A DNA stretch of 64,000 nucleotides from Hadesarchaea archaeon (GCA_029259175.1 JAPDJH010000004.1:64001-128000); one strand, 5' to 3'. Numbered from the stretch's first letter, positions 47,232 through 63,900 are shown. Program-made: numbers and translations. The notes: generated by a model from the sequence alone, not told the origin.

Positions 47232-47335
47232 TGGCGCCGGGGGCGGGATTTGAACCCGCGAGGCGCAACGCGCCACAGGGTTTTCGCGGCACTGCCTTAG
47301 CAACCCTGCGCCCTACCTGGCTAGGCTACCCCGGC
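47232..47335 (-). tRNA. tRNA-Ser(GCT) with 16-nt canonical 37/38 intron (47282-47297), CCA encoded
   Basis: GCCGGGG acceptor, long variable arm, CAGGG-TT-GCT-A|intron|A-CCCTG with BHB motif. Confidence 0.95.
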
Positions 47336-62578: not shown

Positions 62579-63000
62579 ATGCGCTTCGAGGAGTGTGTGA
62601 AGCAGGGGCTGCTCAGGCGCGCGAGGCCCGACCGGCGCAAGGCCGAGCGGTCGCTACAGATCGCGCGCCAGAGGCTCAGGGAAGCTGCGAGGGCGTCCAG
62701 GAGTTCTACACGGGCGCCTTGGTGCTCTCGTACTCCGCGATGTTTCACGCCGCGCGGGCGCTGCTCTTCAGGGATGGCTGGACCGAGAAAAGCCACGCGT
62801 GCGTCGTCGCGTACCTGCGCGCCCGGTACGTGAGCCGGGGCAAGCTCGAGCGGCGCTACCTCGCGATGCTGGACGCGGCCCGGCTCGAGAGGCACGAGAC
62901 GCTCTACGGGCTCGAGGTGACGGTTGCACGGGAGGATGCGGAACTGACGCTTAGGGCGGCACGCGAGTTCGTGTCAAGGGTCGCAAAATTGATTTCCTGA
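62579..63000 (+). pseudogene. HEPN-domain toxin, frameshifted near 62699
   Basis: N-terminus in frame of 62579, YSAMFHAARALL/KSH/RHETLY in frame of 62593. Confidence 0.8.
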
Positions 63001-63327: not shown

Positions 63328-63412
63328 CCGTGTTTAGGTTTCCGCACGTACCATATTATTCTTTTCAATTCCCATTATAGCATGGAGCGATGAGATCTTG
63401 AAGTTCAGCGGA

Positions 63413-63547
63413 ATGAAGTGTCCGAAGTGCCAAGTTGGTGTTTTGGAGCGGTGGACTGCGGGTGACGAGGAGGACGAGGAGGCTACGTGGACGGCGTACC
63501 GGTGTACCGCTTGCGATTATGTTCTGAAAATCAAGCATGTGGATTAA
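63413..63547 (+). CDS. 44-aa zinc-ribbon microprotein
   Basis: Manual translation MKCPKCQVGVLERWTAGDEEDEEATWTAYRCTACDYVLKIKHVD, two CxxC pairs. Confidence 0.65.
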   Translation: MKCPKCQVGVLERWTAGDEEDEEATWTAYRCTACDYVLKIKHVD

Positions 63548-63606
63548 AAATTCTCATTAAATTATCAAAACTTCGCAATCTTGTAAACGCCGCGGGTTCA
63601 GAAAAG

Positions 63607-63713
63607 TGCTTCCCGGGAAGCGAGAGCGCTTCTCGCTTCCTTCCGGGCGGGATTCGAACCCGCGGCGCGAGCTCGAGAGGCTCGCATGTTTGACCGGGCT
63701 ACACCACCGGAGC
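63607..63713 (-). tRNA. tRNA-Glu(CTC) with 32-nt non-canonical intron (63610-63641) at position 70/71
   Basis: GCTCCGG 5' strand, CGAGC-CTCTCGA-GCTCG anticodon arm; removing the BHB-defined intron restores CCGGAGC-A. Confidence 0.88.
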
Positions 63714-63900
63714 ACCAGAAAGTTATGATTTTCTCTACTCAAAAAAATAGCCCCTCTGTGAAAGGATCTCGATTGGTGCGATGAGGTTAATCCAAATTTT
63801 CCACTGTCCGAGAATACTCCGTGTAATCATCGAGAAGGTCGTGGTTAGGTGTCAGACCTGCACACAGCTCCGAACGAACCAATCAAAAAACAAAATTTTA

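Follow-up and report, generated by a model that had tools for sequence, protein, structure and literature searches.

A trailer complementary to the T arm as a candidate cis-encoded aid to splicing of a 70/71 intron in an archaeal tRNA-Glu(CUC)

Introduction

As set out in the accessible text of a review (PMC4090602), the known BHB introns of archaeal tRNAs share splicing by proteins and a motif of two 3-nt bulges around a 4-bp helix, and part of this motif is exon sequence, so that the precursor has to leave the cloverleaf. The positions given in that text run through 3/4 and 20/21 to 59/60 and close with "etc."; positions 68/69 and 70/71, where the introns described below are found, are not listed in the sections consulted. 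Most known cases come from lineages with an (alpha-beta)2 or epsilon2 EndA, as far as the available texts describe them, whereas the genome studied here has a single short EndA. Such a gene bears on how introns at odd positions of archaeal tRNAs are recognized, and on how they persist where the host endonuclease is believed to require a well-formed motif.

In the split and permuted tRNAs of Nanoarchaeum equitans, Caldivirga, Thermofilum and Cyanidioschyzon, a disposable flank builds or presents the BHB, and pairing of the flanks holds the pieces together until ligation, according to the portions consulted of PMC4090602, PMC3978253 and PMC3218864. There, the leader pairs with the trailer across two transcripts or a permuted junction, whereas at the locus reported here the trailer of one transcript would pair with the mature tRNA, and the gene is contiguous with its exons in normal order. 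Likewise, in the processing stems of archaeal 16S and 23S rRNA, as outlined in the texts available, a long helix of flanking sequence presents the BHB to EndA; both strands of that helix are discarded, whereas here one strand stays in the product and must refold. Use of the flank is also at least implicit in tRNAscan-SE 2.0, which, in the part of its description consulted, extends candidates by 60 nt of flank for end-proximal introns.

Here we analyse a tRNA-Glu(CUC) gene with a BHB intron at position 70/71 and a trailer complementary to its own T arm. We propose, with moderate confidence, that this trailer, encoded in cis and discarded afterwards, acts as a stand-in strand, taking the place of the T-stem 3′ strand and favouring splicing of the 70/71 intron. 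The BHB intron itself is of a known kind, and flank-assisted folding by means of trailer-T-arm pairing is the part that is apparently undescribed: we found no description of such pairing in the openly accessible literature searched. Switching of a precursor between cloverleaf and splice-ready fold by its own trailer would solve the problem simply, with RNA alone. Such genes matter for annotation as well: they appear truncated to tRNA finders, and a last exon of 3 nt together with its trailer is easily missed.

Structure of the interrupted gene

The gene lies close to the end of the window, by which we mean the whole stretch of 64,000 nucleotides that was analysed. The source genome (labelled G000) comprises 1.31 Mb on 23 contigs and is 91% complete, and the 64-kb window contains an archaeal SRP RNA as well as archaeal tRNAs. 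The features of the gene, all on the minus strand, are the following.

63713-63607, minus strand: tRNA-Glu(CUC) gene including the intron
63642-63713, minus strand: 5′ exon, positions 1-70 (ARAGORN; Rfam RF00005, 43.5 bits; reading of the sequence)
63656-63667, minus strand: trailer target CGCCGCGGGUUC, made up of CGCC (four variable-loop nucleotides), T stem 49-53 GCGGG, and U54 U55 C56
63644-63647, minus strand: C65-G68, the exon side of the central helix in the BHB, in T and acceptor stem in the cloverleaf
63610-63641, minus strand: BHB intron at 70/71, AGGAAGCGAGAAGCGCUCUCGCUUCCCGGGAA, 32 nt (reading of the sequence, centroid fold)
63640-63631 with 63625-63616, minus strand: inner helix of the intron, 10 bp, with loop 63630-63626
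63615-63612, minus strand: intron strand of the central helix, CGGG
63607-63609, minus strand: 3′ exon G71 C72 A73 (GCA), 3 nt; CCA not encoded
63600-63606, minus strand: spacer CUUUUCU with a T4 run, its UUC able to pair with G57 A58 A59 (RNAduplex)
63588-63599, minus strand: trailer element GAACCCGCGGCG, complement of the T-arm 5′ strand and variable loop

Excision of the intron brings CCGGAGC opposite GCUCCGG, with A as the discriminator, and the resulting 3′ end is identical in intronless orthologues. No other tRNA of the genome has its 3′ acceptor strand interrupted, and blastn-short searches of the genome and of all loci compared returned no other copy of the intron or of the trailer.

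EndA cuts after the second bulge nucleotide on each side. In the BHB of this precursor, C65-G68 pair with the intron CGGG over 4 bp, and the two bulges read G69 A70|A and A A|G71. The outer helix is reduced to 1 bp (G64-C72; 2 bp in the tRNA-Asp genes described below), and a 4x4 internal loop separates it from the trailer helix. This register, with 65-68 in the central helix and a 1-bp outer helix, had been put forward in a first-pass annotation and is also the centroid fold of 63671-63585. With 1 bp and a 4x4 loop beside the 3′ bulge even when the trailer is present, the motif is not a textbook hBHBh′, which strictly calls for a flanking helix of 2 bp or more on either side, and instead resembles HBh′. 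A perfect 14-nt palindrome, GCTTCCCGGGAAGC (window 63608-63621), covers the intron end and the 3′ splice site, and is also retained in the second lineage described below (L093 and others).

The trailer and its complementarity

The first-pass annotation had noted that 63588-63599 (CGCCGCGGGTTC on the plus strand) is a perfect 12-nt inverted repeat of 63656-63667 (GAACCCGCGGCG), and an independent repeat search returns the same pair. The element had been placed 8 nt past the discriminator, and in the minus-strand reading it does begin at the eighth nucleotide. An extension of the pairing by GAA/UUC past a 1-nt bulge had also been described; RNAduplex recovers it as a duplex of 16 pairs with one bulged U (-29.6 kcal/mol). 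All coordinates of that annotation proved correct.

A 12-nt inverted repeat is by itself unremarkable, because two separated perfect ones within 100 nt are found in the 64-kb window, which is about the level expected by chance. We nevertheless regard chance complementarity as extremely improbable. When 50 T arms from across the genome were each compared with 160 nt of downstream flank, the trailer helix scored 12.5 and the other 49 reached at most 8.0. The 3′ half of the precursor (63671-63585, 87 nt) folds at -52 kcal/mol (z = -5.4), a value reached by none of 200 shuffled sequences. Furthermore, the complementarity recurs in three other gene lineages, always matched to the T arm of the gene that carries it.

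Contigs of three other public runs, one of them from a different study, cover 63480-63800 or 63553-63800 with 0 differences; therefore the trailer is not an assembly artefact. The contigs of those runs hold no intronless allele.

Archaeal termination is not known to require hairpins. The trailer helix ends in GCGGCG UUU, with three T; T4 and T5 runs are found 20-40 nt further downstream, and a T4 run lies inside the hairpin itself. The T run that precedes the element is T4 in G000, T5 in its close relative L092 and T5 in G016, and this T4 run, between the discriminator and the element, might stop RNA polymerase first.

Predicted folding of the precursor

Folding the precursor with and without its trailer had been suggested as a check of the annotation, and the outcome agrees with the expectation: with the trailer, the central BHB helix forms with a probability of 0.85-0.9. 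In this unconstrained folding, the value falls to 0.01-0.02 for an RNA that stops at CUUUUC and to 0.3-0.7 for one that stops at the discriminator. The T stem has a probability of 0 in all models that include the trailer. Energies of explicit structures were as follows.

Precursor with trailer, 37 C: BHB conformer -55.1, cloverleaf -39.3 kcal/mol
Precursor without trailer, 37 C: BHB conformer -26.6, cloverleaf -39.3 kcal/mol
Spliced RNA with trailer, 37 C: trailer hairpin -32.8, cloverleaf -29.3 kcal/mol
Spliced RNA with trailer, 75 C: trailer hairpin -7.2, cloverleaf -6.8

The BHB conformer is thus 16 kcal/mol lower than the cloverleaf with the trailer and 13 higher without it. These explicit-structure energies suggest that the trailer tips the precursor towards the splice-ready fold and that loss of the intron cancels most of this bias, with the reservation that nearest-neighbour energies ignore tertiary contacts, which favour the cloverleaf.

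When RNAfold is made to enforce the central helix alone, folds without the trailer already lie below the cloverleaf-constrained fold, by 3 kcal/mol for tRNA-Glu and by 2.5-10 kcal/mol for tRNA-Asp. In all 14 genes modelled, the trailer gives the central-helix folds an additional advantage of 3-17 kcal/mol over the cloverleaf. Because BHB-compatible folds are predicted to beat the cloverleaf even without it, the trailer appears helpful in these models, and its indispensability is not implied.

Interrupted tRNA-Asp genes in related genomes

In 61 related genomes, two congeners included, the orthologues of tRNA-Glu(CUC) are intronless, encode CCA and have no anti-T trailer. The flanks of the congener loci (L008-L011) have only tRNAs in common with G000, and for this reason the insertion could not be delimited by synteny.

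A similar arrangement is found in another tRNA of these relatives: tRNA-Asp(GUC) carries an intron at 68/69 and, 3 nt after CCA, the complement of the T arm of that very gene. Among 46 genomes of the family we recovered 30 tRNA-Asp loci, 15 with the 68/69 intron (from seven genera) and 15 intronless. The first-pass annotation had expected orthologues with the intron to keep the trailer and those without it to lack the trailer, and the tRNA-Asp genes bear this out: 15 of 15 intron-bearing genes, and 0 of 15 intronless ones, have a trailer that complements the T arm or 5′ acceptor strand of the same gene. Genera g8 and g9 each hold both states (intron and trailer, or neither), and the two are gained or lost together even between close relatives that share the downstream flank. 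Some intronless genes of g9 show GAACCCA and GAAAACC; these might be relic trailers, with a signal too weak to use.

No close match to a second tRNA-Asp gene was found in the intron-bearing genomes. The interrupted gene must consequently be spliced, as it is apparently the sole tRNA-Asp gene in these 15 genomes.

The predicted duplex between T arm (44-60) and trailer separates the two groups on average: the mean energy is -19.8 (range -16.2 to -29.6) for the intron-bearing genes (n = 15, one Glu and 14 Asp) and -10.8 (range -3.9 to -16.5) for intronless Glu and Asp genes (n = 41). These counts leave out four duplicate loci, two that were cut or mis-anchored, three of other tRNA species, and L066, which has a further intron within its T arm.

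When all 66 genomes of the phylum were scanned for GAACCC after a T loop, 17 matches were returned. The 14 in uninterrupted tRNAs reach 6-8 bp of pairing, and the three in interrupted tRNAs 9, 11 and 13 bp. A stricter pattern applied to 329 genomes of another phylum returned a single, weak 7-bp match at chance level.

The trailers of tRNA-Asp are not uniform in what they pair with. In genus g11 and in G024 and G034, pairing with the 5′ acceptor strand is about equal to or better than pairing with the T arm. The g11 trailers (L043-L045, L047, L048) contain CCAGGGC, an uninterrupted copy of the 3′ strand of the acceptor; since this motif pairs perfectly with the 5′ acceptor strand, the g11 trailer may be a stand-in acceptor strand and not an anti-T element.

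Further introns occur in some of these genes. The tRNA-Asp of G019 (L066 1501-1651) combines a T-arm intron (after G53) with the 68/69 intron and a trailer element, and tRNA-Asp in G065, G027, G036, G035 and G031 matches only from position 24, which suggests an extra 5′ intron.

Covarying positions in the trailer helix

Covariation was assessed on 12 tRNA-Asp genes. A MAFFT alignment that included the long-trailer genes misaligned the trailers, and RNAduplex tables were used alongside. From the 12 3′ halves, RNAalifold predicts the helix between T arm and trailer unprompted, and the T stem is not predicted. In the proposed full structure 92.4% of cells are paired, and shifting the partners by 1-3 columns leaves no more than 52% paired.

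Within the Asp trailer helix, changes on both sides are seen at position 47 (C-G to A-U) and at position 49 (C-G, U-A, U-G). Comparison of Glu with Asp adds position 49 (G-C versus C-G or U-A) and position 57 (G-C versus A-U). Neither the central helix of the BHB nor the outer pairs of the exon are informative in this respect, because they never vary. The tRNA-Asp element has a mean pairwise identity of 0.71, versus 0.52 and 0.56 for the next two windows of 12 nt.

Since the intron may be passed on together with its trailer as a single unit, the association counts given above rest on perhaps 3-4 independent origins.

A second lineage and the origin of the trailer

A metagenome scan for the exon-intron junctions of G000 returned 13 contigs; pattern scans of genome contigs gave no match to the exact junctions, and the relaxed pattern matched only bacterial coding sequences. 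One of the 13 (L092) is from a close relative of G000, with the same three tRNAs, T5 for T4, an 11-nt element and one change in the intron, where a G-U pair is retained. On the other 12, the neighbouring 2-oxoacid oxidoreductase is 83-84% identical to Candidatus Bathyarchaeia proteins.

The gene of this second, Bathyarchaeia-like lineage is a tRNA-Glu(UUC) with a related 70/71 intron, followed by GCA, CCA and UUAU GACUCGCGAUC CACCGGGG U(5-9). Its first trailer element, GACUCGCGAUC, pairs with the gene's own GAUCGCGGGUU over 11 bp, two of them G-U. The variable loop reads GAUC in the second lineage versus CGCC in G000, and the trailer GAUC versus GGCG, so that three positions are changed on both sides (12 loci). 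The second, CACCGGGG, is complementary to C2-G9 in the 5′ acceptor strand (duplex -18.3). At minimum energy the RNA is predicted to fold into a pseudo-cloverleaf with a normal anticodon arm, in which acceptor and T stem are built from the two trailer elements and the BHB hairpin is predicted to occupy the place of the T loop. Judging from the sequence, both elements probably lie inside the transcript, because the sole long T run (5-9 T) follows them.

L096, L101 and L104 represent a third version, whose 70/71 intron is again different and whose elements are AACCCGCGAUC and CACCGGA. In the L099 and L102 alleles, which have T-arm introns and an intact acceptor strand, no such element adjoins the gene. 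Downstream of the active tRNA-Glu copy of L102, which has no 70/71 intron, CCCTGCGATC is found at a distance of 27 nt; it is complementary over 9 bp to GATCGCGGG and may be a relic.

Several of these loci (L096 3451-5000; also L099, L101, L102 and L104) consist of a complete tRNA-Glu(UUC) with other intron sets, an ORF and then a displaced partial copy, namely the 3′ part of the tRNA from about position 47 with a 70/71 intron and trailer. A 241-aa LAGLIDADG_3 protein (PF14528, 51.6 bits) adjoins the displaced copy. From their sequence organization such loci look like cassettes that replace tRNA 3′ ends, and, lying next to LAGLIDADG genes, they bear on the question of how introns spread. The T arm of G000 (window 63656-63651) reads GCGGG..GAAU..CCCGC, and that of the congeners L008 and L009 reads CCGGG..AAAU..CCCGG. 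As the T arm of G000 equals that of the Bathyarchaeia-like lineage (L093), unlike the congeners, there is a hint that its intron-bearing 3′ end was perhaps imported.

These loci bear on whether the inverted copy of the T arm might be a by-product of a cassette, or of fold-back repair, that replaced the 3′ end of the tRNA, linked to the intron and with no role in splicing. A copy of local sequence would be complementary from birth, tRNA 3′ ends with different intron sets do replace each other in the second lineage and leave partial copies beside a LAGLIDADG_3 gene, the 3′ end of G000 has the suggestive T-arm match just described, and intron and trailer come and go jointly even in close relatives. 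However, the tRNA-Asp element has been kept across seven genera with 86% of helix cells paired and changes on both sides, and it is better conserved than the windows that follow it. The trailer of G000 also fits its own CGCC variable loop, which is common to the congeners, and not the GAUC of the possible donor, and a single fold-back copy leaves unexplained the separate element for the 5′ acceptor strand in the second lineage. On this evidence we consider an origin as a functionless by-product unlikely.

The first-pass annotation had itself raised the alternative that the repeat is an inverted att scar, left at the tRNA gene by integration. The 3′ ends of tRNA genes are common integration targets, and the second lineage does have displaced partial copies in direct orientation. 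Yet G000 has no second direct copy of the 3′ part of the tRNA, att sites are direct repeats and the repeat here is inverted, the element is conserved and covaries in relatives, and no integrase, other recombinase or homing-endonuclease gene is found nearby in G000, the neighbouring genes being the following.

62593-63000, plus strand: HEPN-domain protein, downstream of the tRNA gene
63398-63547, plus strand: zinc-ribbon ORF of 49 aa, converging on the trailer
63849-64187 and beyond the window end, plus strand: MazE-like antitoxin and PIN-domain protein, upstream of the tRNA gene

We accordingly regard an att scar as very improbable and retain the reading of the trailer as a stand-in strand.

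Splicing enzymes and a proposed pathway

The genome of G000 has one EndA gene, which encodes 178 aa and matches TIGR00324 over its full length (123 bits). For a second EndA homologue, tblastn gave no match better than E = 0.04 in this 91%-complete genome. Across the phylum, PF01974 is found in 59 of 66 genomes, exactly once in 56 and twice in three, in frames of about 125-250 aa. Since the gene is single and no gene for a second subunit accompanies it, the EndA of G000 is presumably of the homotetrameric alpha4 type with narrow specificity. Enzymes of the alpha4 type are reported to need well-formed BHBs, as strictly as the alpha′2 enzyme. The latter is limited to canonical BHBs, and broad specificity accompanies extra loops in (alpha-beta)2 and epsilon2 enzymes, as described in the sections consulted of PMC12397907. 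Genes for RtcB, RNase Z and the CCA-adding enzyme are also present in the genome.

With these enzymes, the stand-in strand that we propose would act as follows. Over 12 bp plus GAA/UUC, the trailer of the primary transcript would bind the variable loop, the T-stem 5′ strand and the start of the T loop, so that positions 61-68 are no longer engaged in T stem and acceptor stem. Of these, 65-68 could then pair with the intron CGGG into the 4-bp central helix, with both splice sites in 3-nt bulges, where the single 178-aa EndA would cut at 70/71 and before G71. The trailer helix would tether the 3-nt exon (GCA plus trailer) to the body of the tRNA for ligation by RtcB. With the intron gone, the cloverleaf would be close to the trailer hairpin in energy and the tRNA could refold, after which RNase Z would take off the trailer and CCA would be added. 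In other lineages, the trailer would replace the 3′ strand of the acceptor as well or instead. The stand-in strand would in this way make 61-72 available for the BHB. We infer the transcription of the trailer, the order of these steps and the dependence of cleavage on the trailer.

The first-pass annotation had claimed that the trailer opens the T arm and presents the BHB in one long hairpin. Folding, orthologues and covariation speak for the opening and for the presentation of the BHB; as a long hairpin, the structure lacks a helix abutting the 3′ bulge, where the 4x4 loop lies.

Pairing between trailer and T arm could also serve another function, either blocking RNase Z, the CCA enzyme or a synthetase before splicing, or protecting or defining the 3′ end. 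The loss of the T stem in all models with the trailer would suit such a function, as would the near-equality in energy of trailer hairpin and cloverleaf, which is reached only after intron loss, and the CCA encoded just upstream of the element in tRNA-Asp and in the second-lineage genes. It leaves unexplained, however, why trailers are restricted to introns of the acceptor strand and absent at canonical or T-arm introns of the same lineages. We judge it quite unlikely that such a function is the explanation, although it is compatible with the stand-in role and does not exclude it.

A wider generalization is conceivable, and we put it forward tentatively, with more doubt than belief. Introns near either end of a tRNA might use a general, as yet undescribed surrogate-strand device (trailer or leader) that restores a pseudo-cloverleaf for as long as the splice motif borrows the genuine T-stem and acceptor strands, such that narrow endonucleases suffice even for introns of the acceptor stem, and intron-plus-trailer modules might move between genes and phyla (Hadarchaeota, Bathyarchaeia-like) as substitute tRNA 3′ ends beside homing-endonuclease genes. 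If this were true, mobile modules of intron plus trailer would be a concrete route by which protein-spliced introns spread.

Additional observations

The window holds a second intron-containing tRNA that is easily overlooked: tRNA-Ser(GCU) at 47235-47335 on the minus strand has a 16-nt intron and scores 50.5 bits with Rfam, and ARAGORN, which misses it by default, finds it only when introns are allowed.
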